From: Amylibacter sp.
Lineage (GTDB): Bacteria > Pseudomonadota > Alphaproteobacteria > Rhodobacterales > Rhodobacteraceae
NCBI GenBank assembly: GCA_965206885.1
Contig: CBDBLJ010000002.1
Coordinates: forward strand, 18,459-82,458
DNA: 64,000 nt
Reading direction: 5' to 3'
A program made the translations under genes and the position numbers. Under the pieces are notes generated by a model, which saw only the letters and a list, made by a program, of their open reading frames with translations, had not been told where the DNA came from and did not search any database. This document shows, piece by piece, positions 10,060-33,117 of the stretch (positions within the stretch are counted from its first letter, which is position 1; every line of letters starts with the position of its first letter).

Positions 10060-10926
10060 TTAACATTGGCGAAGCTTGGTTTTCTTAGCGTTTAAATAAA
10101 CTGGTTTATCAATCATTTTGCCATCGACAACTGTGACGCCATCCCCTGATTTTTCAGCACACTCAAAGGCAGCAATTATTTTTGCTGCTTTTATCAATTC
10201 ATCTTCACTTGGTTCAAATGTTTCGTTTAAAATCTCAACTTGGTTAGGATGAATACAAAACCCTCCAATGACACCACAATCTCTTGCCAAATTCGCACCT
10301 GTACGAAACCTATCGAGGTTCTTAAAATCAGAGATAGAGGCGAGAACACCAATAGCAGGTATTCCTAACGCGCAAGCTGATATAACAACCTGATGAAATG
10401 CAGTTCTGATTAATGCGGAATTCGGAGAACATCCAATTTCCGCAGCGAAATCCTCAGTTCCCAATGACAATGCACACAATCTAGGGTGAACAAAACCATC
10501 AACCTGATTTATAGCAATAAGCCCTGTACTGGACTCAATCTGGCAGATAATTATGGGGTTAGTACCGCCATTTTCTGCAATGCTATCAAGCGCCTCACCT
10601 GTAAGCCGAATATGATCAAACCCAAGCGTTTTCGGCAGAACAACAGCTTCACAGTTGTTTGGAAGCGCTTGTAAATCATCCTCAAACAATTCTGGTTCTG
10701 AATTCACGCGCACATAAAATGGTTTGTCGGCCTCACCCAATATTCTTGCTGCTAAATCAAGCTGCTGACGTGCGAATTGCTTAGAGCCGAACGCGACACC
10801 GTCCTCTAAATCCAGACAGACGGTGCCAGCATTACTAACGGCAGCTTTTTCAACCAGCTTTATCTTATCACAAGGTGTAAATAAAATTGACTTGGGAGGT
10901 ATCCAAAGACCACTCACTTGACCCAT
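10060..10926 (-). CDS. HpcH/HpaI aldolase-citrate lyase beta (CitE) family; candidate (S)-citramalyl-CoA lyase
   Basis: LFTP.D, CLDLEDGV, YVRVN, QIES, GTEDF and CIHPNQV motifs; last gene of the mct-meh-mcd operon. Confidence 0.8.
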   Translation of the reverse strand: MGQVSGLWIPPKSILFTPCDKIKLVEKAAVSNAGTVCLDLEDGVAFGSKQFARQQLDLAARILGEADKPFYVRVNSEPELFEDDLQALPNNCEAVVLPKTLGFDHIRLTGEALDSIAENGGTNPIIICQIESSTGLIAINQVDGFVHPRLCALSLGTEDFAAEIGCSPNSALIRTAFHQVVISACALGIPAIGVLASISDFKNLDRFRTGANLARDCGVIGGFCIHPNQVEILNETFEPSEDELIKAAKIIAAFECAEKSGDGVTVVDGKMIDKPVYLNAKKTKLRQC

Positions 10927-10936
10927 TGCTATATTC

Positions 10937-11539
10937 CTAAACGCCTGCAGGATTTTCTACATCGGCACCAAGTGCTTTCAAATCTTGATAGCGATCGCCA
11001 ATGCGGTGATGCGGCCTGCCGCTGGTTGCAGCACCAAAGGCCACCACCAACTCATCGGGGCCTGGTGCGTCGTAGATCGAAAATTGTACGGTGTGGTAGT
11101 GCGAACGACGCCCCGTATCATTTTTATCCATCAATGGAATTTGGAGCTGGGTATTTGCAGGGCCGCGTGTGTTGGTGAAGCCTAAATAGCCTTTTGCCTC
11201 GACAGCCTCACGGTAGAAATTACCATAAAACAGTGTGTGAATCAGTGCTGATGAATGCTCTATCTCGCAATTCACACCTGACATACAAGCTTTGCCAAAA
11301 GCTTCAATCTTTTCCCCTGACCCTGCAAGATCGATGATGCGGTCCGTTAACAGCTTACCCAATTGAGGGCCGTAATGTTGAATCTCAGGCGTCAAATCTT
11401 CGACATACCCGCGACCAGCCCATGGGTTTTTCACAACAGCAGCCACACCGATCATGCGTAAGATCGGATCGGCGGCTTTACCGCCTTCGACATGAATATC
11501 TTCGTCAAAGGTGACAACTTTTCTTATAATGGATTCCAT
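10937..11539 (-). CDS. Amino-acid-synthesis (AA_synth/DUF1185) family protein of unknown function
   Basis: AAVVKNPWAGRG...EAFGKA...GxxxEIEH.SAL.H...DAPGPDELVV pattern recognised from this family. Confidence 0.75.
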   Translation of the reverse strand: MESIIRKVVTFDEDIHVEGGKAADPILRMIGVAAVVKNPWAGRGYVEDLTPEIQHYGPQLGKLLTDRIIDLAGSGEKIEAFGKACMSGVNCEIEHSSALIHTLFYGNFYREAVEAKGYLGFTNTRGPANTQLQIPLMDKNDTGRRSHYHTVQFSIYDAPGPDELVVAFGAATSGRPHHRIGDRYQDLKALGADVENPAGV

Positions 11540-11552
11540 ATTTATGTCTCTC

Positions 11553-13193
11553 TCACTTGTTTTTTTCATTTGTTTTCTCGCGGGGCATCAGACCTCTGGC
11601 GATGATTTCAGCCTGCATTTCTGCGGCCCCTTCGAATATATTTAGGATACGCGCATCACATAAAACGCGTGAAATTGGTGTCTCAATCGCATACCCATTG
11701 CCGCCATGGATTTGCAACGCATTGTCGGCCGCAGACCAAGCAAGGCGCGCTGCAAGCAATTTTGCCATGCCTGCTTCAACATCACACCGCCCGCCTTGGT
11801 CTTTTTTTCTAGCCGCCATATAGGTGAGCTGCCGCACGCCCATAATTTCGACAACCATCCGCGCAAGTTTTCCGTAAATGCGTTCAAATTCGATTATTGG
11901 TTTGCCAAATTGCATACGGTTTTGCGCATATTCAAAGCCAAGTTCCAAAGCACTCGTTGCCGTGCCTAATGCGCGCGCCGCTGTTTGTATCCGCGCACTT
12001 TCAAAGGTTTGCATCAACTGTCGAAAGCCCTGTCCTTCTTCGCCCAAGACTGACGTTTCAGGTACCTTAAAATCATCAAAGGCAATATCGTATTCTTTCA
12101 TCCCACGATATCCGATGACGGGTATTTCACCACCCGTTATACCTTCATCAGGAAAGGGATCCGCATCGCTGCCACGTGTTTTTTCAGCTAAGAACATGGT
12201 TAAGCCCTGATGGCCTAATTCGTCTGGATTGGATCTGGCCAGAAGTGTCATAAGATCAGAGCGGCTGCCGTGTGTTATCCATGTTTTATTGCCGGTGACT
12301 ATATACTCATCACCATCGCGACGGGCGCGGGTTGATAGTTTTGCAAGATCAGACCCCGTGTTAGGCTCTGTGAAAACAGCAACTGGTAAAATATCCCCAG
12401 ATGCAATGCGCGGCAGATACTTTTGTTTTTGCTCTTCTGTGCCGCTTTTTTGAATAAGTTCGCCCGCAATTTCAGAGCGGGTTCCAAGACTGCCGACGCC
12501 CAGATATCCACTGGACAACTCTTCGGTCACGACACACATTGCAAGTTTTCCAAGCCCTGTGCCACCATATTCTTCTGGGATTGTCAGGCCGAAAACGCCG
12601 ATATCTGCCAGTTTTTGCACAACGGCGTCAGGTATAAGGTCATCCGCCATGTGCCATTGATGCGCATGCGGGATAATTTCTTTGCGGGCGAACTCATGGA
12701 ACTGTTCTGCGATCATAGACAGTGTTTCATCCTGACCGCGTTTACCAAAGGATTGGCGCTGAACACATTCATCTATGATTTCGTTTGAAAGCCTAGCGAT
12801 ACCCCATTTGTTAAAGGCAGCGATGCTTGGATCATCCGAAAAAGATTTGACCAAGTCTTGGGCATCCATATCTTGCGGGCGAATAATCTCATCCTGGCTC
12901 ATCGCAATGCCATGTTGCAATTGCGTGAGGTACTCTGAAAATAATGCCGCCGCGATCAACTGTTCTTGGCGCAGGAACTGGCCTTGCGCTGTCAGGGTCT
13001 CTGACCACTCCAAAGTTGCCGCCAGTGTTTCTGAATAGGCCGACATCCATGCAAACCCATGGCGTATGAATTGACTTTCGGGCGGCAGGGTTTTCGATAT
13101 CACTCTATTTCGAACACTCTCAACATATGCTCGCGTCGATAAAACGGCATCCCGCATCGAAGTTTGCAACCCTTTTAAATCAACAGGTTCCAT
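11553..13193 (-). CDS. mcd: (2S)-methylsuccinyl-CoA dehydrogenase-like acyl-CoA dehydrogenase
   Basis: About 550 aa with the long N-terminal extension (HGFAWMSAYSETL) characteristic of Mcd; FTEPNTGSDL, GNKTWIT, GYRGMKEY and IFEGAAE motifs. Confidence 0.75.
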   Translation of the reverse strand: MEPVDLKGLQTSMRDAVLSTRAYVESVRNRVISKTLPPESQFIRHGFAWMSAYSETLAATLEWSETLTAQGQFLRQEQLIAAALFSEYLTQLQHGIAMSQDEIIRPQDMDAQDLVKSFSDDPSIAAFNKWGIARLSNEIIDECVQRQSFGKRGQDETLSMIAEQFHEFARKEIIPHAHQWHMADDLIPDAVVQKLADIGVFGLTIPEEYGGTGLGKLAMCVVTEELSSGYLGVGSLGTRSEIAGELIQKSGTEEQKQKYLPRIASGDILPVAVFTEPNTGSDLAKLSTRARRDGDEYIVTGNKTWITHGSRSDLMTLLARSNPDELGHQGLTMFLAEKTRGSDADPFPDEGITGGEIPVIGYRGMKEYDIAFDDFKVPETSVLGEEGQGFRQLMQTFESARIQTAARALGTATSALELGFEYAQNRMQFGKPIIEFERIYGKLARMVVEIMGVRQLTYMAARKKDQGGRCDVEAGMAKLLAARLAWSAADNALQIHGGNGYAIETPISRVLCDARILNIFEGAAEMQAEIIARGLMPREKTNEKNK

Positions 13194-13210
13194 TTCTTGT
13201 ACTTCCTTAT

Positions 13211-14056
13211 TTAACATGATGCACTTGCCGACAATCCAATATGGCCATCAGGTGTTCTAACCACTAATTCTAAGCTGCCATCTGGTTGTTTACGCCCTTC
13301 CAACTGAGTCTTTTCTCCTAAAAAAACGGGTGCTTCGGCCCTAAATGAAAAGGCTGTAAGTGGTGCCTTTAGCCAAAGGGTTGCGTAATGTGCCATCATA
13401 ATTGCGTTCAGCGGTGCATGAACCACGCGTTCGGGATAACCCTCAACATGCACTGCATAATCTTTATCGTAATGAATACGGTGAGAATTGAATGTCAGTG
13501 CAGAAAACCGAAACAACAAAACTTCATCAGCTGTAAAGCTCGTAGTGAAATCTGTCTGGTCAGTTGACTTTGTCATATCTCGATCAGGTCGCGCTCCACC
13601 CTCTGATTGCAAATACACTATGGATTGTTTTTCTGTGATTAGAGTACCTTGATGATCCGACAAATCTATATCAACCGTGACTAGATATAGCGTTCCACTT
13701 TTCCCCTCTTTCTTTTCAATTTTGGAAATAGTCTGCTTCTTGCGAACTTCCGAAGTAATAGAGATTTGTCGATGACATTGAATTTTTGACCCTGCAAACA
13801 TCCGCCTTTTGGCAGGCAAGTCAGGCATCAGAACACCCAATTTAGCGTGACCATCAATGCCAATATCTTGTGGTACGACAGCATCAAGATGATACATCCA
13901 ATGCCAAAGAGGTGGTAAAATATGATCTGGACATGAAACGCCGATCGAATTGGCGAGCATCGCAACTTTTTCAAGGCCAATAATTGCTGTGGCTTCTGTT
14001 GTCCGACCTGTCCAATATTTAATCTGTTGTTCAATCGTCACTGTTATTTGCTCCAT
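13211..14056 (-). CDS. meh: Mesaconyl-C4-CoA hydratase / itaconyl-CoA hydratase-like double-hotdog enzyme (start 14056 or GTG 14041)
   Basis: LPPLWHW, RRMFAGS and LLFRFSALTFNSHRIHYD..Y...EGYP..VVHAPL motifs. Confidence 0.8.
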   Translation of the reverse strand: MEQITVTIEQQIKYWTGRTTEATAIIGLEKVAMLANSIGVSCPDHILPPLWHWMYHLDAVVPQDIGIDGHAKLGVLMPDLPAKRRMFAGSKIQCHRQISITSEVRKKQTISKIEKKEGKSGTLYLVTVDIDLSDHQGTLITEKQSIVYLQSEGGARPDRDMTKSTDQTDFTTSFTADEVLLFRFSALTFNSHRIHYDKDYAVHVEGYPERVVHAPLNAIMMAHYATLWLKAPLTAFSFRAEAPVFLGEKTQLEGRKQPDGSLELVVRTPDGHIGLSASASC

Positions 14057-15215
14057 TTCCCAATACATCTTTAAGAACTGCATCCGTATCAGCACCAACA
14101 TGGGATGCAGGTCGCACAGGCTGGCGTTTTTGATTTACAAAATTCAAGGGAGAACCTGATGCACACATACGTCCAATACCGTTTTGTTCAATCTCTTCAA
14201 ACATAGGGTTTTGCAGTGATGCACGGGGGTCACTCTGAACCATTTGTTGGAAACTTTGATAGGGTCCCCAAAGTATTTTGACGTCATCAAACAAATCTCC
14301 AATTTCCGCTAAAGTTTTATTTTGAGACCATTTACTCAGCTGGATAACAATCTCATCCCTCGCGTTATAACGCCCGGCATCACTGTATAGGTTAAGTCCC
14401 TTGCGTTTTTCAATTTCTGACATAGCATCTGCAGTGCCCGTGATTTCCACAAGCGATTTCCAATGTCGGTTTGTCAGAGCTACCAGCATAAGTTGGCGGC
14501 CATCTGAAGTGGGAAGATTGTGACCAAAAGCGCCGTATAAATGGTTGCCAATTGCAGGGCGATCCCGTTGCATAATTTCAGCTTCGCCCATGAAACCCAG
14601 ATTGGAAACCAACGAGTAAGCCACATCTGATAACGCAAGCGTCACATGCTGACCTTCTCCTGTTCTACTGCGATGTCGTTCCGCCGCAAGAATAGCCATT
14701 GCAAGCGTCATTCCCGCGATAGCATCCCACGCAGGGAACACACTATTTACAGGCTGATCCGCCGTAGCATTTCCCGTTGCAAACGGAATGCCCACGGCGC
14801 AATTGACTGTATAATCTACAGCTGCACTCCCATCATTGTGACCTGTCAAACTGACCATAATCAAATCGGGCCGCACTTTACGTAATTCTTCATAAGATAA
14901 CCATGATGGACCCGTTAAGTTGGTCAATAGAATGCCACCGTCTTCACATGAAGATGCTAATATTCTTCGGAAGATATCGCGCCCACCTTCTTGCTTCAAA
15001 TCAAGAGCAACGGATCGTTTACCTTTATTCAGCCCTGCCCAATACAGGCTTGTTCCATTTTTAGTTAGCGGCCATCGGTTATAATCCATCCCGCCACCTT
15101 CGGGGTCAACGCGGATAACTTCTGCACCTAATTGGGACAACGTCAGCCCAGCAAAAGGCGCTGCAACAAAGGCGGATAATTCTAATATCCGCATTCCTGA
15201 CAAAATATCATACAT
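14031..15215 (-). CDS. mct: Mesaconyl-CoA C1-C4 CoA transferase (2-methylfumaryl-CoA isomerase), family III
   Basis: SAFVAAP..G.TL.QLGA.VIR.DP.GGG.DY.RWP...SL.WAGLNKGKRS, VDYTVN and PAWD closely match the recalled Chloroflexus Mct sequence. Confidence 0.8.
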   Translation of the reverse strand: MYDILSGMRILELSAFVAAPFAGLTLSQLGAEVIRVDPEGGGMDYNRWPLTKNGTSLYWAGLNKGKRSVALDLKQEGGRDIFRRILASSCEDGGILLTNLTGPSWLSYEELRKVRPDLIMVSLTGHNDGSAAVDYTVNCAVGIPFATGNATADQPVNSVFPAWDAIAGMTLAMAILAAERHRSRTGEGQHVTLALSDVAYSLVSNLGFMGEAEIMQRDRPAIGNHLYGAFGHNLPTSDGRQLMLVALTNRHWKSLVEITGTADAMSEIEKRKGLNLYSDAGRYNARDEIVIQLSKWSQNKTLAEIGDLFDDVKILWGPYQSFQQMVQSDPRASLQNPMFEEIEQNGIGRMCASGSPLNFVNQKRQPVRPASHVGADTDAVLKDVLGNGANNSDD

Positions 15216-17343
15216 GACTTGCTTTCGGTGTCAGGTCGACGGTACGTGTCTCTCCAGATGTTTCATCGCCATGATAAATAGAGAACCGTCCTTGTTTCAC
15301 TTCATTCACATAACGTCGCAACATAAAACGCGTGGCATCATCAGCTATACGCTCAAATGGAATATCTTCGATTGCGCAGAAATACATTCCCTCAGGTGCC
15401 TTACCACGTGCTTTGCCCCTGTAGTAAATCATGAACTTTCCCGAAGCTTTGTCATCATATGTAGAAAGCATAAAATCGAGGCTAGCGTCTAACTTATCAT
15501 TCTTTAGGTGCTTGGATAATGCAGTTGGCGTTGCTTCAATCCCAAAAATCTGGCTATTTGGCAATGTAAGAGTAGACGCAGTTTCATCACCACAAAACAA
15601 TAACTTTCCATCATTTTCCAGAACGGCACCAACCACTGCACCTGCAGTGCCTTTCGCCGCATTCAACAGTGTTTTGCCACCTTCCAATGAAAAGAACCCA
15701 CCATTGACATAACCAAGTGGTTGCCCCACTTCATATGTGTATTCTTGTACTTTACCGATAAGAATAATGTGATCACCTGCATCGATCACTTTCTCTCTGG
15801 TACATTCAAATTGGGATAACGATCCTTCAATCATTGGCATCCCAATGCTTCCCGTATCCCACCCTACATGTTCGAATTTATCGGCACGGGGTGCAGCAAA
15901 AACCCCTGCTGTATCTTTTTGATCCTCTGACAGGATATTCACAGCAAATCCCTTACTCGTTTCGAAAATTTGCAAACTTTCAGAGAACTTTCCAATACAT
16001 ACCAGAACCAATGGTGGGTCCAAAGAGACTGATGTAAACGAATTTGCCGTAAAACCGCGTGGTGTTCCATCTTCTTCAACCGTTGTCACGACCGTAACTC
16101 CTGTCGCGAAAGTTCCAAATGCATTCCGTAAATCACGCTGTTCTTCTTTGGAATAATGACGAACTTTGGAAGGCTTAAGATATGTGTCATTATCGCCGCC
16201 AAGTCGCGGCGGCGTCTGGGCAATCGGTGTCGGAGCATTGCTGAAATGTACGGGGTTGGCAGCAACGGTCCAAGGTTTTGCGCCCTCAACTGGATGTGCC
16301 ACTTCTGTTAACATACCACGGGCCAACACCTGTGGATCCGCAAAGATGTCTTGAACAGAATTTAATGGGCCAAAGGGCACCACGCCGCCCAACAAATCTG
16401 TAAGTTCTGCTTTGGAAAATTGCTTCGTCCAATCAGCCACAATCGCGTTCAGCTCTTTTGAATTGGCACTGCGAGCACCAATTGATGTAAATCGCGTATC
16501 GTCACGCAAATCTTGCATATTCATGACGCTCGTCAATGTCCGCCAAAAAGAGTCATCTACGATGCCAAGCGCCACTTGCCCATCTTTTGCAGGGAAAAGG
16601 CCAAATAATGCAAGTAGTGGATGACCGTTCCCTTGAGGACCAGGAATCGTGCCATCAAAATCATATTGGTAAATCGCACGCTCGCACATGCTCATCATTG
16701 CATCATACATTGCGACATCAACGAATTGTCCGCGACCTGTTGAATTAACCTGCCGCAAGGCGGCCATAATTCCAAAGGACATCATCATGCCCGTAAAAAT
16801 ATCCCCAATCCCTGGCCCTACTTTAGTAGGGGAATTCGCATCGGGCCCTGTTAACCCCATAATGCCACCCATTGCCTGGGCAACCACATCGTAGGATGGC
16901 CAGCTTTGGTAAGGGCTTTCCCCCGACCGTGGATCACCAAACCCACGGATCGCCGCATAAACCAATCTGGGGTTAATCTCTGCCAGAGTTTCATAGGACA
17001 AGCCAAGACGCTCCATGACACCCGGTCGAAAATTCTCAACAACGACATCCGCTGTTTCACAAAGCTCTAAAAAATTCTGTTTGCCTTCTTTGGATTTCAA
17101 ATCCAATTGGACACTTTTTTTACTTCGGTTCAGGCTTACAAAATAACCAGCCCATTCTTTATTCGGATCGTCATCACGAAAAGGTCCATTTGAACGGCTT
17201 GTATCGCCATTCTTACTTTCAATTTTAATAACCTCAGCACCATGGTCCGCCAGCATCATCGTGCAATACGGCCCAGACAACATACGACTTAAATCCAGCA
17301 CACGTAGGCCAGATAAAACCCCTTGTGTACGTGTATCATTCAT
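15208..17343 (-). CDS. Fusion of a CaiB/BaiF family III CoA-transferase, a flavin reductase and a C-terminal domain (about 711 aa)
   Basis: N-terminal LDLSRMLSGPYCTMMLADHGAEVIKIE...YDVVAQA; after about residue 400, RDLRNAFGTFATGVTVVT...GFTANSFTSVSLDPPLV...AGDHIILIG; no stop codon between the domains. Confidence 0.88.
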   Translation of the reverse strand: MNDTRTQGVLSGLRVLDLSRMLSGPYCTMMLADHGAEVIKIESKNGDTSRSNGPFRDDDPNKEWAGYFVSLNRSKKSVQLDLKSKEGKQNFLELCETADVVVENFRPGVMERLGLSYETLAEINPRLVYAAIRGFGDPRSGESPYQSWPSYDVVAQAMGGIMGLTGPDANSPTKVGPGIGDIFTGMMMSFGIMAALRQVNSTGRGQFVDVAMYDAMMSMCERAIYQYDFDGTIPGPQGNGHPLLALFGLFPAKDGQVALGIVDDSFWRTLTSVMNMQDLRDDTRFTSIGARSANSKELNAIVADWTKQFSKAELTDLLGGVVPFGPLNSVQDIFADPQVLARGMLTEVAHPVEGAKPWTVAANPVHFSNAPTPIAQTPPRLGGDNDTYLKPSKVRHYSKEEQRDLRNAFGTFATGVTVVTTVEEDGTPRGFTANSFTSVSLDPPLVLVCIGKFSESLQIFETSKGFAVNILSEDQKDTAGVFAAPRADKFEHVGWDTGSIGMPMIEGSLSQFECTREKVIDAGDHIILIGKVQEYTYEVGQPLGYVNGGFFSLEGGKTLLNAAKGTAGAVVGAVLENDGKLLFCGDETASTLTLPNSQIFGIEATPTALSKHLKNDKLDASLDFMLSTYDDKASGKFMIYYRGKARGKAPEGMYFCAIEDIPFERIADDATRFMLRRYVNEVKQGRFSIYHGDETSGETRTVDLTPKASHV

Positions 17344-18151: not shown

Positions 18152-18154
18152 GCC

Positions 18155-18553
18155 TTAGTCTTTCTTAATTGGGTTATATGCTACGACCTCTACTTCCACA
18201 CGAACATCAACTAATAGCTCACTGACAACAGCGGATCGTGCTGGTGGGTCTACGGGAAAATATTCACCATATACTTGATTAAACCCTGGAAAATCAGAGC
18301 GATCCCGCAGCCAAACCATTGCTTTAACGACACCGTCCATAGAACATTCGGCTAGCTTTAAAGTGTCGTGAATGGCGTCCAAGACCACTTTTGTTTGAGC
18401 TTGAATATCCCCTGACGTCATTGGCTCTCCATCTTGCATAGGGATCTGCCCCGTAAGATATAGGAAATCACCTGCCTGAATGGCGCGCGACAAGGATAAT
18501 GTTCGATTGTTGATCACGACAGGATCACCAATCACTTTTTTCTTTGGTGGCAT
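18155..18553 (-). CDS. RidA/YjgF family enamine-imine deaminase
   Basis: LYLTGQIP, FNQVYGEYF..DPPARSAV with the catalytic Arg present, VEVEVVA. Confidence 0.88.
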   Translation of the reverse strand: MPPKKKVIGDPVVINNRTLSLSRAIQAGDFLYLTGQIPMQDGEPMTSGDIQAQTKVVLDAIHDTLKLAECSMDGVVKAMVWLRDRSDFPGFNQVYGEYFPVDPPARSAVVSELLVDVRVEVEVVAYNPIKKD

Positions 18554-18608
18554 TAATTTTTCTCCCTATTTGATAGGCTATTTAATCTTTGAATTAACAA
18601 CAGAGGTA

Positions 18609-18631
18609 TTTTCGTCATCGTATGTCGAAAA
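18609..18631. promoter_or_regulatory. Candidate operator TTTTCGTCA-N5-TGTCGAAAA upstream of ridA
   Basis: Inverted repeat whose half-site recurs upstream of the SBP gene, cdhR and the ALDH operon. Confidence 0.5.
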
Positions 18632-25790: not shown

Positions 25791-27147
25791 GTAACCCAAC
25801 CTTTTCCTTGTTTATTCCAGACATTTGCCCAAAATCCATCATTCGGCAAATTCTTAACAGTGACATCAAGGCCAATACTTCCTAATGATCCCTGAATAAG
25901 TTGCGCAGAGTCTGTGGCGCCTTCAAAAGCTGCATTAGAAGCTAAAAGTTCAAGCTTCGCATCTCCATATCCAGATTTCTTAAGATGGTATTTGGCCTTA
26001 TCAGCATCAAACTCACGTTGTGGTAACTCAGTGTTGTAAAACTCTTGCGTTGGTGAAATATCATGGTCATTTCCAAGACTTCCGTGACCCCGAAAAACCT
26101 TATCAACCAACTCCTGACGTTTGACACCATATTTAATTGCCAACCTAAGGTCCACATTATCATAAGGCGGTGTATCTAGTCGCATGATTGTGTTGCTGTG
26201 CTGCGTACTTGCTGTTTCTAAAATCTTTAAATGCGGTGCCTGCTCTAACAAGTTAACTGTTTTAAGATCAACATGATCCACAGCGTCAATGTCGTCGTTT
26301 AGCAGTGCTGCTTGCCGTGAAGTCGGGTCCAAAAGTATGAGTGATTCAATTTGGTCAAAGTGCGCGCGACCTTCTTTCCAGTAGTTTGGATTACGCTTGA
26401 ATAGAGCCCGAACACCAGGTTCAAATTTTTCAAGGATGTATCCCCCAGTACCGATCCCGTTGCCAACGTTAATTTCACCGTCGCTACCAACTGGTAAAAT
26501 AACCGCATGATAGTCACTTAGCACCCATGGGAAATCTGCGTTCGGAGCCTCCAGTTCCATAATAACAACATAGTCACCCTCTTTACGCATAGATTTAATC
26601 TGAGCAATCAAAGATTTAATCGCTGATGCACTTTCTTCACCGCGATGGCGATTAATAGAAGCAATCACATCATCTGCATTGAAAGTTTTGCCATTGTGAA
26701 ATTCTACACCTTTGCGAAGATTGAATTTCCATGTCTTTGCATCATCTGTTTCGATACTCTCGGCCAACTCACCCTTCAAAGTACCGTCACTCTGCACTTC
26801 TGTAAGATTATCACCCCAAGTATAGTTAATGTTGATCATTGCATTGGAACCCTCGTTAGTCATCGGATCCAAACTATTATTGGTAGAACCAGTCGCAAAA
26901 GCCTGACGAAGTATGCCGCCTTGCTTTGGGGTCGCTGCTTGAGCTGCATCTGCCATTGAAAGCGCTGCGGGTATTGTGATACCAGCAGCCACCATAGAGC
27001 TCATAAATTGTCGGCGGTTAATTGCCCCTGTCACAAATTTTCCCTGTTGAGTATTGATAAACTTATCACGCATTTAGTTTCCTCCCAGATCATGCATTTA
27101 GTTCTATTCGTATACCCTCAGCTTTATCTAAAACCATGAAGCATGCA

Positions 27148-27180
27148 TTTTCGACAAAATTGTCTTCATTCTGTCGAAAA
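27148..27180. promoter_or_regulatory. Candidate operator TTTTCGACA-N15-TGTCGAAAA upstream of the SBP gene
   Basis: Perfect 9-bp inverted repeat. Confidence 0.55.
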
Positions 27181-27675
27181 GACTATGTTCTCAGTTTTGA
27201 GCAACACAAAATTCAATATATTCTCTTTTTCCGTATACAGGTAATCTTTGTTGCTTCTTCTGATCCATCATGAAAAGTGCCAAACTATTTATCGCAGAAC
27301 CATTAAACTCCACCATAATTATATTCATAATTTCCATGGCTATATCGGTAAAAAACAACCCACTCAAAAAGCGCGGTTTATCTTTCATCCCAATTACTTC
27401 GTATCAGGAGGCAAACTCCGATACCCTAAGAAATTGCGAAGAAATGTCATGGCCTTGGAAAAATTATCTGATGTTACGAATAATAAACCTAAGTACGGCT
27501 CGAATATACAAATCAACTTCGGATCCAGTCTAGGTTTCCTTAGGAATGCAGAATGGTTGTTAGATAAAGTATTTATTATCCCTCAATAGATATATTCTAA
27601 ACTTCCAAAGTAATTCACCAATAATTCCCTCTTATTTTTTTCTATATTATGAGAACTCGAATATAAAACATATAC

Positions 27676-27708
27676 TTTTCGCCATATTATATACTATAAT
27701 GACGAAAA
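27676..27708. promoter_or_regulatory. Candidate operator TTTTCGCCA-N15-TGACGAAAA upstream of the AraC regulator
   Basis: Same half-sites and same 15-bp spacer as the site at 27148. Confidence 0.55.
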
Positions 27709-27747
27709 ATCTTACCTTATCACCTAAAATCCATACAAACTGCGTAC

Positions 27748-28818
27748 ATGGACAAACACACAAAAACACCACCACCTGCGCTTAGAATAGCTTGCGTTCT
27801 GATCCCGCGCTTCAATATGATGACCCTAACAGGGCTGCTAGAGCCTGCGCGTATAGCAAACTACCTTTCACCTTATAATTTGTTCACACATGAGTTTTAT
27901 TCGTTTGACGGTTCAGAGGTTTTTGCCAGTAATGGTATGTCAGTGACCTGCACTGAGCCACCCCAAAAACTTGGTCGAAACGATATCATTTTTGTACTTG
28001 GTAGCTGGGGTGGAGAACATTATTCCAATACGAAATTAATCTCATGGCTTAGATTACAAGCCAGATTAGGCGCACGCCTTTGCGCTGTTGAGCTTGGTAG
28101 TTATATTTTTGCACGTGCGGGCCTTTTAGCCGAAAAGGAAGTCACAACTCATTGGTCATACTTGGCAGGTCTTCAGGAGAAATTCCCAGACGTTATTGCC
28201 AAAGAACAAATATATACTGACAATGGGAAAATCATGACATGCTCTGGCGGGACGGCAGGTATTGACTTGATGCTCCATATCATCAGGCAGCAACACGGGG
28301 AGGAAATGTCTGCGGAAATAACAGATCAGATTATGTATCATTCCGCACGCAAAGAAGATGCGCCGCAACGCATATCGCTTGGGGGCAACATTGATACACT
28401 AACACCTAGCGTTCGCGCCGCCATAAGTATCATAGAAACTCAAATCAGCGAACCACCCAGCGTTCCCGAAATTGCAAAACATGTTGGTATTTCTCAACGC
28501 CAACTCGAACGGCAATTCAATAAAGTAATGGGCTGCAGTATTGTTCAGTTCGGGCTTTTGTTCCGGCTTCAACACTCGCGGGCCCTCCTCATATCGACAG
28601 AGCTCGGTATTCGCGAAATTGCCACTGCATCGGGATTTAATTCTTTATCACATTTTGCTTTCGCGTTTAAAAAATGTTTTGGTCGACGGCCCAGCGAATA
28701 CCGTGTTGCTTGGCCAGAACAGGATACTGCCCCGTACTGGCCTGGAACTATGTCAAGATTTATAGATAAGTTAGAAATGAGCCGACGCCTAAAACACGAC
28801 AAACCTACGAAACCTTAG
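27748..28818 (+). CDS. cdhR: GlxA-type (GATase1-AraC) transcriptional regulator, CdhR/GbdR-like
   Basis: N-terminal GATase-like domain (TTHW, TCSGGTAGIDLML) and C-terminal AraC HTH (GISQRQLERQF, SGFNSLSHF). Confidence 0.7.
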   Translation: MDKHTKTPPPALRIACVLIPRFNMMTLTGLLEPARIANYLSPYNLFTHEFYSFDGSEVFASNGMSVTCTEPPQKLGRNDIIFVLGSWGGEHYSNTKLISWLRLQARLGARLCAVELGSYIFARAGLLAEKEVTTHWSYLAGLQEKFPDVIAKEQIYTDNGKIMTCSGGTAGIDLMLHIIRQQHGEEMSAEITDQIMYHSARKEDAPQRISLGGNIDTLTPSVRAAISIIETQISEPPSVPEIAKHVGISQRQLERQFNKVMGCSIVQFGLLFRLQHSRALLISTELGIREIATASGFNSLSHFAFAFKKCFGRRPSEYRVAWPEQDTAPYWPGTMSRFIDKLEMSRRLKHDKPTKP

Positions 28819-29756
28819 GCCGTGTCGCGCAATGCACGAAGAACCGCTACGATTTGTCGGTCACGTTTTGCTGCCATCTCTTCAAATCCACGGTCACCCG
28901 CAACCTCATTACATCCATCAACCATTCGGTCGCGGAGTTCTTTTGTAAGGTCTGGTGCTTCCAACCGTGTCCATGGCAACTTCAATGCTGGTCCAAACTG
29001 GTCAAGGTTAGTTGCCATTCCACCAGCACCACAGGCCACGTGGAATGCCATACATTGACCTTGCGCAGCCATGCGCGGAGCAGGCCCATTCATCAGCGCT
29101 ATATCGATGTCTTCTGGCGTTGCTTCACCATTTGCCACCATATGCAAGGCTTCACGCCACAATGCTTCTTGTAGCCGAGTTGCCACGAAACCAGGGATTT
29201 CTTTCTTCATAATCAAAGGCGCCTTGCCCGCGATCTCATAAAATTCACCTGCCCATCTAACGGCTTCTGGATCAGTTTTCTTACCGCCTACAATCTCGAC
29301 CAGCGGTAACAGATAAGGCGGATTAAATGGATGTCCAATAACTGTACGCTCAGGCGTTGAGCATTGTGTTTGAATATCTGTCATCATCAAGCCAGAAGTG
29401 GATGAGCCGATCACAACATTCGCAGGAACAACTCGCCCTAATGTTTCATAAAGCGCTTGTTTCATTTCCAAGTTTTCTGGTGCACTTTCTTGAATAAACT
29501 GTGCGTCTTTCACCGCCTCTTCCAAATCCGTTACAATCCTCAACCGGTCTCGCGACGCGCTGGGTGCCAGACCAAGGTCGGTTAAACTTCCCCAAGCCGT
29601 ATCAAGTATTGCCATAAAGGCAGGTGTTTCCGATTCATCATGTAGATAGAGCGTTACATCATATCCGCGAGCCAAAAAATGTGCAGCCCATCCACCGCCG
29701 ATGGGCCCGCCACCAATGCTGGTGATGCGGGATATAGTCTTGGGATTGGGATACAT
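28815..29756 (-). CDS. lcdH: L-carnitine dehydrogenase (3-hydroxyacyl-CoA dehydrogenase family), no thioesterase domain
   Basis: IGGGWAAHFLARG, FIQESAPENL, SSTSGL, GHPFNPPYLLPLVE and GFVATRLQEALWREALH; next to cdhC and caiD. Confidence 0.8.
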   Translation of the reverse strand: MYPNPKTISRITSIGGGPIGGGWAAHFLARGYDVTLYLHDESETPAFMAILDTAWGSLTDLGLAPSASRDRLRIVTDLEEAVKDAQFIQESAPENLEMKQALYETLGRVVPANVVIGSSTSGLMMTDIQTQCSTPERTVIGHPFNPPYLLPLVEIVGGKKTDPEAVRWAGEFYEIAGKAPLIMKKEIPGFVATRLQEALWREALHMVANGEATPEDIDIALMNGPAPRMAAQGQCMAFHVACGAGGMATNLDQFGPALKLPWTRLEAPDLTKELRDRMVDGCNEVAGDRGFEEMAAKRDRQIVAVLRALRDTA

Positions 29757-29758
29757 AG

Positions 29759-30562
29759 TTATTCGCCTTTAAAATTCGGTTCGCGTTTTTCAACGAAAGC
29801 GGCAACACCTTCTGCCGCGTCATCTGACTTTAGCATTTTACGATAAGTCGGCATCGGGTCGGTGCGCATTTTATAGAATGCTTGTTCTAGCGGCACACAT
29901 TCAATGGCCCGTTGCACTTCTTTCACGCTTTGCATCGCAAGGGGGGCTGACCATGCAATGGACGCCGCCCACTCGCGCGCTGCTTCCATCAAGTTTTCTT
30001 TCGGCACCACTTTATTAACCAACCCATATTGTGCGGCTTCTGACGCTTTCATACGGCGGCCAAGCAAAAACATTTCCATTGCAATATTATGAGGGATGCG
30101 ACGCGGTAAACGTTGCAAAGCACCTGCATCTGGCACAATACCAAGCGGCATTTCGGGCAACCCAAATTCCACATGGTCGGCCGCGATCAACAGATCACAT
30201 CCCAGTGCCAATTCAAAACCACCACCGATGACCAAACCGTTCAAGGCCGCAATAACGGGTTTGTTTAAGGACCAATTCTCTGTTAGTCCCGCAAAACCTC
30301 CTTCACCGTAATCAGCTGTCTCCCACCAGTTATCCAATTGCATCTCGCCAGAGTTCAATGCCTTCAAATCCCAACCAGCCGAGAATATCTTGTCGCCCTC
30401 GCCCGTCACGATGCCTACGCGCAGCTCTGGATCATCGCGAAGCTCGGCAAAGGCCGCTCCAATGGCTTGGCTCATCGGAATGTCGATAGCGTTCACTTTG
30501 GGTTTATTCAGTTTTACTTCCAGAACATGGCCGTTCCGGGTTATTTCTACACCGTTTGTCAC
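29759..30562 (-). CDS. caiD: Crotonobetainyl-CoA hydratase / carnitinyl-CoA dehydratase
   Basis: FSAGWDLKA, GGFAGLTE, KPVIAA.NG...GGGFELAL and LPE..LGIVPD match the recalled CaiD sequence. Confidence 0.82.
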   Translation of the reverse strand: MTNGVEITRNGHVLEVKLNKPKVNAIDIPMSQAIGAAFAELRDDPELRVGIVTGEGDKIFSAGWDLKALNSGEMQLDNWWETADYGEGGFAGLTENWSLNKPVIAALNGLVIGGGFELALGCDLLIAADHVEFGLPEMPLGIVPDAGALQRLPRRIPHNIAMEMFLLGRRMKASEAAQYGLVNKVVPKENLMEAAREWAASIAWSAPLAMQSVKEVQRAIECVPLEQAFYKMRTDPMPTYRKMLKSDDAAEGVAAFVEKREPNFKGE

Positions 30563-30581
30563 AGGTAGCTCCTTTTTTTAA

Positions 30582-31619
30582 TTATTTAAATGCTGGCATC
30601 ACTTCGTTACAGAACAATTCCAATGATCGTTTCTGCGAAGCCATATCCAAACCAAAGCTTGAATAGAAAATAAATTCATCTACGCCCAAAGCTTCATATC
30701 GTTTGAGTTTTTGGATAACTGTATCAGGAGAGCCAAACATAAGATTTTCTTCCAGCATTGCTGGATCGTATTGCTCACGGCCTTCCAAATCGGACAGTGC
30801 AATTTCCTTGGGGAAGCCATCTTTCACATCGCCAAGATTGCGATAAAGATTTTCGAATTGTCCTAAAACACGCGTGATTGCGTTGATAGCATTGTCGCGC
30901 CCAGCATCATTTTCGTAAACGCAGGCGTGACGCATCATTGCAAAAATTGGATTGGCTTTTCCGCCCGATTTGACGATCGCCTCATCCAAGGGCTTTTTGT
31001 AAAGCTCAGCTTCCTCAAATGGACGGGTGAACGGCCACGACATAATGTTGCAATCATTCTCGATAGCATAATCAAACGTAATCGGAGAACGCGCTGCCGC
31101 CCATAACCGCGGATAAGGTTTTTGAATTGGTTTTGGTACAGACGTAGATGTCGGGAAATTCCAATATTCACCATCATGGGCATAATCGCCCTTCCAAAGC
31201 GCCTTTAGCGCTGGCAGCATCTCTTGCATATAACGCCAACCATCTGATTGTTTTACGCCCGGCATCATACGGTCAAATTCGCGCTGATAAGCACCTGAAC
31301 CAATGCCAAACTCCAATCGCCCGCCGCTGATCAAATCCAAGAATGCAGCTTCACCAGCTAGATTGATTGGGTGCCAGTACGCCGCTGTAGCTACAGCCGT
31401 CCCAAGACGAATAGTATCAGTTTCCCCTGCCCACCAAGTTAAAATTTGAAACGGATTGGGCGCAATTGTCATCTCTAGGGCATGGTGTTCTGCTGCCCAA
31501 ACAATATTGAAGCCACCGCGCTCCGCTAGTTGCACCATCTCGATGGTGTGGCGTTGCAGTTCATTCATATCAACGCTTGCATCCAAACGCTCTAGGTTAA
31601 TTGCTAGTTGAAATTTCAT
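30582..31619 (-). CDS. Luciferase-like (LLM) flavin-dependent monooxygenase, TgnB/HomA-like
   Basis: AEHH...TIAPNPF, RLGT.......WHPI.LAGEAA..D.IS.GRLE.GI..GAY..E..RM.PG resembles recalled trigonelline monooxygenase TgnB. Confidence 0.8.
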   Translation of the reverse strand: MKFQLAINLERLDASVDMNELQRHTIEMVQLAERGGFNIVWAAEHHALEMTIAPNPFQILTWWAGETDTIRLGTAVATAAYWHPINLAGEAAFLDLISGGRLEFGIGSGAYQREFDRMMPGVKQSDGWRYMQEMLPALKALWKGDYAHDGEYWNFPTSTSVPKPIQKPYPRLWAAARSPITFDYAIENDCNIMSWPFTRPFEEAELYKKPLDEAIVKSGGKANPIFAMMRHACVYENDAGRDNAINAITRVLGQFENLYRNLGDVKDGFPKEIALSDLEGREQYDPAMLEENLMFGSPDTVIQKLKRYEALGVDEFIFYSSFGLDMASQKRSLELFCNEVMPAFK

Positions 31620-31635
31620 AATATCTTCCTTTATA

Positions 31636-33117
31636 TCAGCGCATTACAAAAGGATTAGCCATAGGCTCATCCGATGTATTGACCCATATTGTTTTTGGAC
31701 GTGTGTAATCATACATAGCCTGGAAACCACTTTCGCGGCCATATCCTGACCCTTTCACACCACCAAACTCTGCGATTGGGGACACAACACGGTAAGTATT
31801 CACCCAGACAATCCCTGCACGCACAGCATCCGCCATTCGCAAAGAGCGCGCTCCATCTTTCGTAAAGATACCTGCAGCCAATCCATGCTCCGTATCATTC
31901 GCCAATTCGATAACTTCTTCTTCGGTCTTAAACCTTTGAACGCTCAATACTGGGCCAAACAGTTCTGTATCAACGATGCGCATATCCTGATTAGGGCACT
32001 CAATAATGGTAGGCTCATAAAACAGCCCATCCATGCCTTCAGGACGTTTTCCGCCCGCTAGAACTTTACCACCTTCACTTTTAGCAAAAGCAACTTCGCG
32101 CTCGATGTTTTCCAACTGACCAACTGTGCAAAGCGGGCCCATCTGGGTCTCTTCTAACAATGGATCACCGATGCGGATTTGGCGCGTCAATTTCAACATA
32201 TGTTCCAGAAACTCATCCGCAATATCTTCGTGCAAATACAACCGTGATCCTGCCACGCAACTTTGACCCGCAGCCCCGAAAATTCCTGCAATTGAGCCGT
32301 TAACCGCACTCTCAATGTTGGCATCATCGAATACGATAAAGGGGGATTTTCCACCCAACTCCAATGAAACTTCAGCAAAGTTCTGTTTAGAATTATCAAG
32401 GACATGGCGCGCCGCATTGGGGCCGCCTGTAAAGGATATACGCGCGACCAATGGATGTGATGTCAACGCGCGACCGCAAGGTTCTCCATGGCCTGATACA
32501 ATATTCACAACACCTGGTGGAAAACCCGCCTCTTCGATCAATTGGCCAAATTCCAACATAGCAGCAGAGGCATATTCCGAAGCCTTTAATACCACCGTAT
32601 TTCCCGCAGCTAAAGCTGGGCCAATTTTGACAGCCACCAAAAACAATTGTGAATTCCAAGGAACAACTGCGGCAACAACACCTAATGGCTCACGTTTGGT
32701 AAATACAAAAAGATCAGGCTTATCAATCGGCAGAGTTTCCCCGCTAATCTTATCTGCACAACCTGCATAAAACTGGAAAAACTCAGCGATGTATTTCGCC
32801 TGCCAACGTGTCTCTTTCAGCATCTTGCCAGTATCCACTGACTCGGTACGTCCCAATTCTTCCGATTTATCAGCCAATAACTCTGCAAGTTTGCGCAGAC
32901 ATTTACCACGCTCAGTTGGTGTCATTTTGGACCATGGCCCCGTTGAAAATGCCTTATGTGCAGCGCGTACAGCCTGATCAATATCTTTTTCAGTTGCTTC
33001 GGGTACTTGCGACCATATCTCTCCAGTTGATGGGTTGATGCTGTCAAACATCTTGCCATCAGATGCATCAACCCAATTGCCGTCTATTAACATTTTGTAC
33101 TTCTGAATATTTGTCAC
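31636..33117 (-). CDS. Aldehyde dehydrogenase, TgnC/HomC-like
   Basis: VPWNSQLF..AVK.GPALAAG, FTGGP, LELGGKSPFIVF, GQSCVAGSRL, TELFGPVLSV and C-terminal PFVMR, as recalled for TgnC. Confidence 0.85.
   Translation of the reverse strand: MTNIQKYKMLIDGNWVDASDGKMFDSINPSTGEIWSQVPEATEKDIDQAVRAAHKAFSTGPWSKMTPTERGKCLRKLAELLADKSEELGRTESVDTGKMLKETRWQAKYIAEFFQFYAGCADKISGETLPIDKPDLFVFTKREPLGVVAAVVPWNSQLFLVAVKIGPALAAGNTVVLKASEYASAAMLEFGQLIEEAGFPPGVVNIVSGHGEPCGRALTSHPLVARISFTGGPNAARHVLDNSKQNFAEVSLELGGKSPFIVFDDANIESAVNGSIAGIFGAAGQSCVAGSRLYLHEDIADEFLEHMLKLTRQIRIGDPLLEETQMGPLCTVGQLENIEREVAFAKSEGGKVLAGGKRPEGMDGLFYEPTIIECPNQDMRIVDTELFGPVLSVQRFKTEEEVIELANDTEHGLAAGIFTKDGARSLRMADAVRAGIVWVNTYRVVSPIAEFGGVKGSGYGRESGFQAMYDYTRPKTIWVNTSDEPMANPFVMR

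Follow-up and report, generated by a model that had tools for sequence, protein, structure and literature searches.

A Tgn-like gene cassette joined to butyrobetaine/carnitine-type and C5-dicarboxylate CoA genes in Amylibacter sp.: a candidate catabolic supercluster

The DNA analyzed in the current work (the window) is a stretch of 64,000 nucleotides of Amylibacter sp. (contig CBDBLJ010000002.1, positions 18,459 to 82,458), in which the genes located between positions 10060 and 33117, counted from the first letter of the window, are of interest. An earlier note, made from the letters of this stretch, had reported the presence of a luciferase-like flavin monooxygenase (LLM), an aldehyde dehydrogenase (ALDH), an alpha/beta hydrolase, a flavin reductase domain, an AA_synth protein and a RidA protein, interleaved with genes for C5-dicarboxylate CoA esters. 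A map of open reading frames, combined with Pfam and NCBIfam scans, recovered all of these genes where the note had placed them, on the minus strand, together with others which it had omitted (an enoyl-CoA hydratase (ECH), an L-carnitine dehydrogenase (CDH)-like 3HCDH protein, an AraC regulator, an enzyme for the cleavage of beta-keto acids (BKACE), a second acyl-CoA dehydrogenase (ACAD), an acyl-CoA synthetase and two insertion sequence (IS) elements between the gene sets). The reading developed here, to which we give a little less than an even chance, is that this region would be a single catabolic supercluster under common regulation, directed at nitrogen compounds of the betaine type (quaternary or N-methylated) and made up of three modules; it is built on homologies, gene order, conservation and a shared upstream motif, all of which are observed.

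The first series of minus-strand genes starts with the ALDH (31636..33117; Pfam Aldedh, 550 bits), a TgnC-like paralogue, followed by the LLM (30582..31619; Bac_luciferase), which belongs to a tight clade being sister to TgnB, by the ECH, of the crotonobetainyl/carnitinyl-CoA type (29759..30562; ECH_1), and by the 3HCDH protein of the L-carnitine dehydrogenase type (28815..29756; 3HCDH_N/3HCDH), being a short form without thioesterase domain. The LLM-ECH and ECH-CDH gaps of 19 nt and 2 nt, and the same orientation of the genes, indicate that these four form one operon. No equivalog-level match was obtained for L-carnitine dehydrogenase (NF005471, 311 bits versus a cut-off of 414) or for crotonobetainyl-CoA hydratase (CaiD, 310 versus 500 bits). 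Convergent to the CDH-like gene, on the plus strand, lies a GbdR/CdhR/GlxA-type AraC regulator with a DJ-1 domain (27748..28818; HTH_18 plus DJ-1; GbdR equivalog 250 bits, cut-off 480). Three more minus-strand genes specify the BKACE, of the dehydrocarnitine-cleavage type (23003..23899; BKACE, 330 bits), the second ACAD, a candidate gamma-butyrobetainyl-CoA dehydrogenase (21803..22963; Pfam ACAD domains), and an ADP-forming acyl-CoA synthetase, a candidate gamma-butyrobetaine-CoA ligase (19701..21872; CoA_binding_2, Succ_CoA_lig, ATP-grasp_5).

A second minus-strand operon runs from 18553 to 10060, with its genes overlapping or spaced by at most 10 nt. It begins with the RidA-family enamine/imine deaminase (18155..18553; Ribonuc_L-PSP) and the alpha/beta hydrolase, which has a PcaD-like fold and is the positional homologue of the tgn-cluster hydrolase (17336..18151; Abhydrolase_1; PcaD 150 bits, cut-off 256). 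The third gene (15208..17361; Pfam) encodes a 717-aa fusion of a family-III CoA-transferase (CoAT1, residues 16-391) and a TgnA-like flavin reductase (FR, residues 416-559 plus a C-terminal extension), referred to here as CoAT~FR. Its transferase part is nearest to succinyl-CoA:mesaconate CoA-transferase (NF041294, 427 bits, below the cut-off of 700) and scores just 145 bits with CaiB; its reductase part matches PDB entry 3RH7 over the full length, C-terminal extension included. Next come a second family-III CoA-transferase (CoAT2, 14031..15215), resembling mesaconyl-CoA C1-C4 isomerase (Mct; best NCBIfam model TIGR04253, 438 bits versus a cut-off of 725), a MaoC-type hydratase resembling itaconyl-/mesaconyl-C4-CoA hydratases (13211..14101; best PDB match 8KHG, an itaconyl-CoA hydratase, 149 bits, E=2e-42) and a 554-aa ACAD of the (2S)-methylsuccinyl-CoA dehydrogenase (Mcd) type with an N-terminal extension (11553..13217; PDB 6ES9 of Paracoccus, 601 bits, E=1.7e-179, residues 44-544). 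The hydratase has solely itaconyl-CoA hydratases as PDB relatives and no NCBIfam match. These three genes are placed, with overlapping reading frames, between CoAT~FR and AA_synth (10937..11569; PF06684, 225 bits; PDB 2QTP), a family constant in all Tgn-like cassettes, and the operon ends with a CitE/Ccl-like acyl-CoA lyase, a candidate citramalyl-CoA lyase (10060..10926; HpcH_HpaI; RipC/Ccl 116 bits, cut-off 375), whose PDB matches include malyl-CoA lyase, CLYBL and Ccl of Pseudomonas aeruginosa. As far as sequence can tell, the C5-dicarboxylyl-CoA gene calls are sound and fall within one tight operon. PDB searches with the LLM, the hydrolase and the ALDH returned distant or generic matches only, and no Rfam match was found within the window. 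Every gene of the cluster is full length despite the rearrangements around them, and the genes look intact since their lengths agree with those in relatives.

The Tgn route of Acinetobacter baylyi ends in succinate semialdehyde, which the hydrolase TgnD liberates together with CO2, formate and methylamine, and a succinate semialdehyde dehydrogenase (SSADH), and the trigonelline degradation cluster tgn of strain ADP1 was reportedly described by Perchat and colleagues in 2018. As a tgn reference we employed the PGAP-annotated cluster (with tgnA, tgnB and tgnC named) of the Acinetobacter sp. PK01 plasmid NZ_CP094644.1, found by tblastn of the LLM against plasmids, which has the order GntR | AA_synth - alpha/beta hydrolase - tgnA - tgnB - tgnC - permease - hypothetical - SSADH - CMD. 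Its proteins were searched by tblastn against the whole window, and each of the five core proteins found its best match in the predicted gene. Identity to PK01 amounts to 62% for AA_synth, to 52% for TgnC versus the ALDH (TgnC orthologues sharing 70-72% among themselves; the ALDH is also 53% identical to the ALDH of the Sinorhizobium medicae tgn cluster), to 38% for TgnA versus the reductase (true tgn clusters share merely 41-48% in TgnA), to 38% (range 38-40%) for TgnB versus the LLM and to 30% for the hydrolase; the TgnB orthologues of S. medicae and Thioclava are 72-73% identical to that of Acinetobacter, and tgn hydrolase orthologues share 51-54%. The ALDH has betaine-aldehyde dehydrogenase as its best NCBIfam match, scoring 504 bits with that equivalog, below the cut-off of 669. 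The remark of the earlier note that no TgnE-like gene is present applies to the entire 64-kb window, in which the PK01 SSADH matches just the TgnC-like ALDH, at 33.5%.

In a neighbour-joining tree, the window LLM falls into a tight clade (65-80% identity) which is separate from the TgnB clade and has as its sister a group from Agrobacterium pAt and Ensifer (45-50%). The LLM family is narrow, since only 168 of the 50%-identity representatives reach E<=1e-30, and the IMG/JGI labels 'trigonelline monooxygenase' and 'tgnB' fall on clusters 39% and 32% identical to the LLM, not on its clade. Many Rhodobacterales also have members of the canonical TgnB clade, and the coexistence of the two clades in this order argues for different substrates or different downstream chemistry. 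Considered as a whole, the window cassette appears to be homologous to tgn, albeit as a paralogous sister and not as an orthologue; trigonelline is therefore not established as its substrate, given that the LLM shares 38-40% identity with TgnB versus the 72-73% seen among TgnB orthologues. What the earlier note had recognized as the Tgn enzyme set thus stands as a gene-for-gene homology to a bona fide tgn cluster, and fails for the LLM in that this protein lies outside the clade of TgnB orthologues.

The five-gene set is also present on S. medicae pSymA, in the marine Thioclava, on Agrobacterium fabrum pAt and in Ensifer adhaerens, each time beside a betaine-type transporter. The S. medicae representative (pSymA 974513-993544, our locus L092) is a canonical tgn-type cluster which adjoins nodL/noeA, includes an SSADH, a NIPSNAP protein and an ABC transporter belonging to the cluster, and is probably the classical trc (trigonelline catabolism) locus. 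The loci of A. fabrum C58 (pAt 213499-230530, L097) and E. adhaerens (pB, L095) represent a third Tgn-like family, with an LLM 45-47% identical to that of the window and the order FR-ALDH-LLM-hydrolase-CMD-NIPSNAP-AA_synth-2-hydroxyacid dehydrogenase, beside a ProXWV betaine transporter.

More than 4000 homologues of the LLM were found, the best 120 listed being 74-98% identical, and 80 marine metagenome loci anchored on the LLM were used for synteny counts. The layout ALDH-LLM-ECH-CDH (type 1) occurs in 50 of these 80 loci, and the ECH comes after the LLM in 43 of the 69 that have at least 1 kb of downstream flank. Among the 25 ALDH-bearing type-1 loci whose upstream flank extends over 6.5 kb or more, the hydrolase is present in 24, AA_synth in 23, RidA in 18 and CoAT1 in 15. 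A common layout was observed in Ruegeria pomeroyi, a metagenome-assembled genome, Hwanghaeella, Aminobacter pSR3 and Parasedimentitalea, namely AA_synth <- (CoAT~FR) <- hydrolase <- RidA | ALDH -> LLM -> ECH -> CDH (<- AraC) -> BKACE -> (ABC) -> ACAD -> synthetase; the CoAT~FR fusion is shared with R. pomeroyi and Parasedimentitalea marina, and the window RidA is 57-72% identical to the RidA proteins of type-1 loci. The association of LLM/ALDH with RidA-hydrolase-(CoAT~FR)-AA_synth in many unrelated genomes is far beyond chance.

A different setting (type 2) was encountered in 22 of the 80 loci (among them L043-L047, L050-L052, L055, L057, L059, L062, L065-L067, L071, L072, L076, L080, L084, L086; for example L066 6332-13655), with the order TetR - PcaD-like hydrolase - Xsc/acetolactate-synthase-like thiamine pyrophosphate (TPP) enzyme - CMD - LLM; ALDH and AA_synth accompany it in some cases, and there is no reductase nearby. 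The arrangement next to ProXWV on A. fabrum pAt is a further one. The recurrence of LLM, ALDH, hydrolase and AA_synth in several settings indicates that this core is a movable cassette with alternative finishing modules, which, to judge from gene content, would be SSADH and CMD in tgn, the TPP enzyme and CMD in type 2, and CoA-transferase, RidA and ECH/CDH in type 1.

A shared upstream motif was derived from an unbiased 8-mer count over 44 intergenic regions between RidA/hydrolase and ALDH, taken from other loci (L001-L091). The core CGAAAAAT was found in 31 of the 44 regions and TGGCGAAA in 23. The derived motif TGNCGAAAAAT(C) has four exact matches in the window, three of which are located upstream of RidA, the AraC regulator gene and ALDH: TGTCGAAAAAT is present on the minus strand at 33180..33190, 63 bp upstream of ALDH, and on the plus strand at 18623..18633, 70 bp upstream of RidA, and the regulator gene is preceded at 38-74 bp by an inverted pair, TGGCGAAAAGT / TGACGAAAAAT (27674..27710), with its TGNCGAAAAAT match at 48 bp. 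In addition, BKACE is preceded at 58 bp by TGACGATAAAT, which departs from the motif at a single position (23957..23967, minus strand), and TGTCGAAAA alone occurs 7 times in the window versus 0.8 expected; these motif statistics are indicative only, since the pattern search was partly post hoc. The motif suggests one regulon spanning all transcription units of the cluster and is probably the operator of the GbdR/GlxA-type regulator.

The genes omitted by the earlier note, which constitute the second module, resemble those for butyrobetaine and carnitine catabolism. The route from gamma-butyrobetaine via carnitine to betainyl-CoA and acetoacetate in Sinorhizobium meliloti uses exactly the five enzyme families that cluster here with a GbdR/CdhR-type regulator (ADP-forming CoA synthetase, ACAD, crotonase, carnitine-dehydrogenase-type dehydrogenase and BKACE), gamma-butyrobetaine/L-carnitine catabolism of this bacterium having reportedly been worked out by Bazire and colleagues in 2019. 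The S. meliloti carnitine dehydrogenase is a dual-function protein (PMC12482172). The set is contiguous in many other loci, and the P. marina gene at the ECH position is a carnitinyl-CoA dehydratase by its PGAP name. The window BKACE is 73-88% identical to that of marine type-1 loci and 81.6% to that of Aminobacter, the second ACAD is 87% identical to its Aminobacter orthologue, the synthetase comes after the ACAD in 22 of the 80 loci from marine metagenomes, and a regulator gene occupies the same position in 24 of them. By these counts, the ECH/CDH-type butyrobetaine/carnitine genes appear to be the most faithful partners of LLM/ALDH.

The third module consists of the C5-dicarboxylate CoA genes, which on paper would give a complete route from methylsuccinate to pyruvate and acetyl-CoA. 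Genes of this kind are found beside the cassette only in the lineage of the window, in Hwanghaeella and in Aminobacter. Hwanghaeella has an Mcd 66% identical to that of the window in the same slot, between reductase and AA_synth; Mcd-AA_synth also occurs in a genome closely related to that of the window, at about 83% nucleotide identity; and Aminobacter carries, directly after AA_synth, a non-orthologous itaconate-type set (MmgE/PrpD, ACAD, CoA-transferase, MaoC, CoA-ester lyase) which shares 30-36% identity with the window genes. On plasmids of Azospirillum and Marinobacter, homologues of CoAT2 have MaoC genes or ACADs of Mcd size in their neighbourhood. A CoA-transferase of the dicarboxylate type is fused or adjacent to the reductase in many lineages, the mesaconate-type fusion being that of Rhodobacterales. 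The independent recruitment of different C5-diacid genes to one slot, together with the mesaconate-type CoAT~FR fusion, supports a dicarboxylate product handled as a CoA ester. The C5 route itself appears to be a lineage-specific addition. The interleaving described by the earlier note is accordingly confirmed with regard to gene identities and operon structure, and does not extend to the 80 marine loci or, for the CitE-like gene, to the closest relative; the co-occurrence of Tgn-like with mct-meh-mcd genes which it had proposed to look for was seen in none of these 80 loci, the Mcd of Hwanghaeella and the itaconate-type set of Aminobacter being independent additions.

Some published data are available for R. 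pomeroyi DSS-3, in which the cluster, by inference from published annotations, would be located at about SPO2697-2712. These annotations designate SPO2699-2702 as an 'opine/polyamine' ABC transporter, SPO2707 as luciferase-family and SPO2708 as COG1012, mislabelled carnitine dehydratase. The SPO2699-2702 transporter is upregulated 3-5-fold in co-culture with Micromonas, a picoeukaryote (PMC9870897), and an SPO2708 mutant shows slightly reduced fitness in the diatom phycosphere (PMC10041152). In the part of a carnitine proteome that covers these tags (PMC12478193 Dataset S1), the true L-carnitine dehydrogenase SPO1436 is increased by +9.4 log2 and its neighbour SPO1435 by +8.7, and SPO2707 by +1.14 log2, which is not significant; within the reach of that dataset, carnitine itself is thus probably not the inducer. 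In the R. pomeroyi cluster, the binding protein of the ABC transporter resembles the GABA-binding Atu4243 family, for which gamma-butyrobetaine (trimethyl-GABA) would be a better fit than carnitine. Strain DSS-3 grows on trigonelline (PMC8269262), R. pomeroyi carries a cassette of the window type, and the species is not among the best 120 matches of the canonical TgnB clade, which is a weak indication. In R. pomeroyi strain L001, BKACE-ACAD-synthetase is detached from the cassette. The carnitine transporter cntTUVW (SPO2995-2998) was considered as the ABC system of the cluster and ruled out, as the neighbouring tags do not fit. The published supplements contained nothing on other SPO27xx tags, and no paper describing the cassette or assigning a substrate was found in the literature.

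From the above we infer the substrate, the order of steps, the C5 diacid product and the service of modules 1 and 2 to one compound, as follows. Module 1 would comprise ALDH, LLM and RidA-hydrolase-[CoA-transferase~flavin reductase]-AA_synth, as the paralogous sister of the tgn cassette. Its reductase domain would supply reduced flavin to the LLM, which would oxygenate a cationic N-heterocycle and open it; this heterocycle would most likely be a betaine of the pyridinium type, and need not be trigonelline. The aldehyde or lactol arising from ring opening would be converted to an acid by the ALDH, the formamide or enamine remnant of the nitrogen would be removed by hydrolase, RidA and AA_synth, and the acid product would become a CoA ester through the family-III transferase fused to the reductase, in place of the succinate semialdehyde/SSADH ending of Tgn. 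Module 2 (ECH, CDH-like protein, BKACE, ACAD, synthetase and GbdR-type regulator) would carry out a sequence of the type gamma-butyrobetaine to crotonobetainyl-CoA, carnitine, dehydrocarnitine and finally betainyl-CoA plus acetoacetate. Module 3 (Mcd, Mct-like, Ich-like and Ccl-like proteins), added in the window lineage, would convert the CoA ester of a methylsuccinate/mesaconate-type C5 diacid to pyruvate and acetyl-CoA. Rhodobacterales possess the ethylmalonyl-CoA pathway, and extra Mcd and hydratase genes would be unnecessary in such genomes, in which a C5 ester would require no added genes.

Pursued to its most specific form, this scheme would amount to an undescribed global marine pathway in which a TgnB-sister enzyme opens some cationic N-heterocyclic betaine, not trigonelline, perhaps one bearing a side chain similar to gamma-butyrobetaine that module 2 shortens, and in which the ring carbons are kept as a branched C5 diacid CoA ester that enters the ethylmalonyl-CoA pathway or is processed by Mcd-Mct-Ich-Ccl, with no decarboxylation to succinate semialdehyde; in this full form we regard it as speculative and rather doubtful, retention of the C5 skeleton by itself being plausible. 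Several observations weigh against the three-module reading. The LLM is no TgnB orthologue and the hydrolase shares merely 30% identity with its tgn counterpart, for which reason the chemistry may differ from ring cleavage. None of the 80 marine loci has, at up to 10 kb from the LLM, an orthologue of Mcd, CoAT2, hydratase or lyase, and the CitE-like gene is missing from its slot in the closest relative, an unrelated gene being located there in locus L008. Among the genes of the cluster, no reductase is evident for the conversion of a formylsuccinate-type product to methylsuccinate. The type-2 loci, whose LLM is 72-75% identical, have no CoA genes at all. Finally, SPO2707, which does not rise significantly on carnitine, was equated with the LLM from neighbouring annotations only.

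Three other explanations were weighed against the three-module supercluster. One of them holds that the region is an island of separate betaine pathways which share only a regulator and a location, the Tgn-like cassette leading from one betaine to a C4 product, the ECH-CDH-BKACE-ACAD-synthetase set breaking down gamma-butyrobetaine/carnitine, and Mcd-Mct-Ich-Ccl being an independent methylsuccinate/itaconate set that landed in the operon. The window is indeed full of IS elements and rearranged relative to its relatives, the presence of CitE varies between close relatives, most cassettes (including those of type 2, which dispense with any CoA gene) are without C5 genes, and BKACE-ACAD-synthetase is detachable, as in R. 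pomeroyi strain L001. We nevertheless regard this explanation as unlikely, because CoAT2-MaoC-Mcd sits inside the operon, between CoAT~FR and AA_synth and with overlapping frames, because C5-diacid genes entered this slot in three lineages independently, because ALDH-LLM-ECH-CDH form a single operon, having gaps of 2-19 nt in the window and recurring in 43 of the 69 loci whose flank suffices, and because one motif precedes all transcription units. The proposal of the earlier note assumes that trigonelline or a ring-methylated analogue is opened in the manner of Tgn, and that the skeleton of (N-methylformamido)methylene-succinate remains a C5 unit, which is activated with CoA and then cleaved into pyruvate and acetyl-CoA. 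The homology of the cassette to tgn, the lack of TgnE in the window, the fusion of a dicarboxylate-type CoA-transferase to the reductase with C5 genes in the same operon, the growth on trigonelline of DSS-3, whose species bears the cassette, and, weakly, the lack of R. pomeroyi among those best 120 canonical-TgnB-clade matches speak for it. However, with a canonical tgnB clade that is conserved at 72-73% across classes and common in Rhodobacterales, a sister clade at 38% more likely serves another substrate; C5 genes rarely accompany the cassette (in 0 of 80 loci), and ECH, CDH, BKACE, second ACAD and synthetase are left without a role. Further weak points are the divergent hydrolase and the lack of any evident step taking the formyl carbon of a 2-formylsuccinate-type intermediate down to the methylsuccinate level. 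We consider the proposal quite improbable.

The third explanation dispenses with a ring altogether and lets the LLM cassette act on open-chain butyrobetaine/carnitine intermediates. The ALDH could then be a trimethylaminobutyraldehyde dehydrogenase that yields gamma-butyrobetaine, and the LLM possibly a C-N or Baeyer-Villiger oxygenase acting on dehydrocarnitine or trimethylaminoacetone; the hydrolase might be an esterase or thioesterase, and the CoA-transferase might recover the CoA of carnitinyl- or betainyl-CoA in lieu of the thioesterase domain absent in the short CDH. Such a role would agree with the constant presence of LLM/ALDH in one operon with ECH-CDH, with a CDH without the thioesterase domain of the long form, with betaine-aldehyde dehydrogenase as the best NCBIfam match of the ALDH, and with the GABA-type binding protein and GbdR-type regulator in the cluster. 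It is at odds with the homology of all five cassette members to tgn and with an ALDH which is nearer to TgnC (52%) than to SSADH (33.5%) and remains below the betaine-aldehyde dehydrogenase cut-off. Moreover, 22 loci have the same LLM but no genes of the carnitine type, CoAT1 scores 427 bits with mesaconate CoA-transferase versus 145 with CaiB, and Mcd, Mct, Ich and Ccl would be left unexplained. We hold this role to be quite unlikely as well.

The cluster is surrounded and interrupted by mobile elements. A blastn comparison with L007, a close relative (break at 27622/23914), delimits between the regulator gene and BKACE a lineage-specific insertion of 3.7 kb (23914..27622), which contains a truncated SBP_bac_5 gene (25775-27073; Pfam) and an ISAs1-type copy (24574-25790), being one of two identical ones. 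Between the synthetase and the RidA operon lies an IS630-family transposase in two ORFs (18806..19640, minus strand; DDE_3, HTH_Tnp_IS630). At least 9 transposase genes of about 6 families are present in the 64 kb, three of them as repeat pairs of 99-100% identity (2878-3177/63348-63647, 24574-25790/42294-43510 and 38627-39191/41148-41712) and others at 8641-9765, 18806-19640 and 40065-40901; truncated neighbours include SBP_bac_5, a Rieske gene and probably TctA at 35008-36502. The genome appears to be in IS expansion. The Rieske gene encodes a GbcA-like oxygenase (quaternary-amine monooxygenase family, 158 bits versus a cut-off of 670) at 7611-8498 and 9793-10055, split by an IS5-type insertion at about 8484-9792; it adjoins an HD-domain gene and a LysR regulator and is intact in L008 (2956-4086), and in the type-2 locus L066 a similar Rieske gene and a class II aldolase flank the LLM.

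Directly upstream of ALDH, the genes at 33365-38594 encode an LldD-like FMN 2-hydroxyacid dehydrogenase, a TctCBA transporter and ComDE-like sulfopyruvate decarboxylase subunits passing TIGR03845/03846, a content which suggests sulfolactate/sulfopyruvate metabolism; they are not kept beside the cassette elsewhere. The interval 44398-53530 contains an IorAB-type molybdenum hydroxylase (a 2Fe-2S subunit and a 746-aa Mo subunit), followed by a dCache sensor kinase, a sigma-54 response regulator and a DctPQM TRAP transporter. Molybdenum hydroxylases of the IorAB type often act on N-heterocycles.

Plankton and bacteria exchange carbon and nitrogen to a large extent in the form of N-methylated osmolytes, among them trigonelline, homarine, carnitine and butyrobetaine, and the cassette LLM has thousands of close relatives in marine metagenomes in addition to the model organism R. 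pomeroyi. Its substrate, once named, would add a missing sink for a marine N-metabolite, would show a Tgn-type cassette re-plumbed from a decarboxylative C4 ending to a CoA-dependent one, and would explain why this cassette is joined to genes of the butyrobetaine/carnitine type.

With regard to known systems, the combination of LLM, flavin reductase, RidA and alpha/beta hydrolase follows the logic of the Rut pathway (RutA/F/C/D). The Rut models score far below their cut-offs (RutC 59 versus 169, RutD 74 versus 239 and RutF 76 versus 255 bits), RutA is not among the best 25 of 29 NCBIfam matches of the LLM, and no RutB or RutE is present; a Rut-like role in pyrimidine degradation was dropped for these scores and for the gene-for-gene homology to tgn, and that same homology led us to drop an SsuD-like desulfonation (for example of a sulfobetaine). 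The known C5 CoA routes (Mcd of the ethylmalonyl-CoA pathway, Mct and Meh of the 3-hydroxypropionate bi-cycle, and itaconate degradation by Ict-Ich-Ccl, which we take to be encoded by PA0878-0883 of P. aeruginosa and RipABC of Yersinia) have in common with the window an Mcd-type ACAD, an Ich-like hydratase, a Ccl/CLYBL-like lyase and two family-III CoA-transferases; they differ in that the window genes are embedded in a Tgn-like operon instead of forming a stand-alone cluster, and the Mct-, mesaconate-CoA-transferase- and Ccl-like proteins of the window remain below the equivalog cut-offs. The gamma-butyrobetaine route of S. meliloti and CdhCAB of P. aeruginosa share with the window the CoA synthetase, ACAD, crotonase, dehydrogenase of the carnitine dehydrogenase family, BKACE and the GbdR/CdhR-type AraC regulator. 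Here, by contrast, the CDH is short and without thioesterase domain, an LLM/ALDH pair heads the operon, and the NCBIfam equivalog scores are all below cut-off; in DSS-3, moreover, the carnitine-induced locus in the covered part of the proteome dataset is SPO1435/1436, elsewhere in the genome.

The homarine operon homABCDER resembles the cluster in being devoted to N-methylpyridinium betaine catabolism in marine bacteria and in having an ALDH-like enzyme (PMC13236597). It encodes an FAD-binding HomA, HomB, a peptidase-like HomC and an ALDH-like HomD, its route ends in N-methylglutamate, it has no reported LLM, AA_synth, RidA or CoA genes, and in R. pomeroyi it is located at SPO3188-3192 (PMC13236597). 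By this published description both the enzyme set and the R. pomeroyi locus are different, which lends no support to the relation to homarine genes that the earlier note had drawn. The PyrA/E proteins of Arthrobacter sp. 68b and the 2-(acetamidomethylene)succinate hydrolase of vitamin B6 degradation, likened here by description, share with the proposed scheme the direct opening of a ring without prior hydroxylation and the hydrolysis of an N-acyl enamine. The tgn cluster itself contains the same five families in one cassette (AA_synth, alpha/beta hydrolase, flavin reductase with C-terminal extension, LLM and ALDH), with a betaine-type regulator or transporter close by. Unlike tgn, the window has no SSADH (TgnE), CMD protein or GntR regulator, and its changed gene order, split over two operons, incorporates RidA, the CoA-transferase fusion, ECH and the CDH-like gene.

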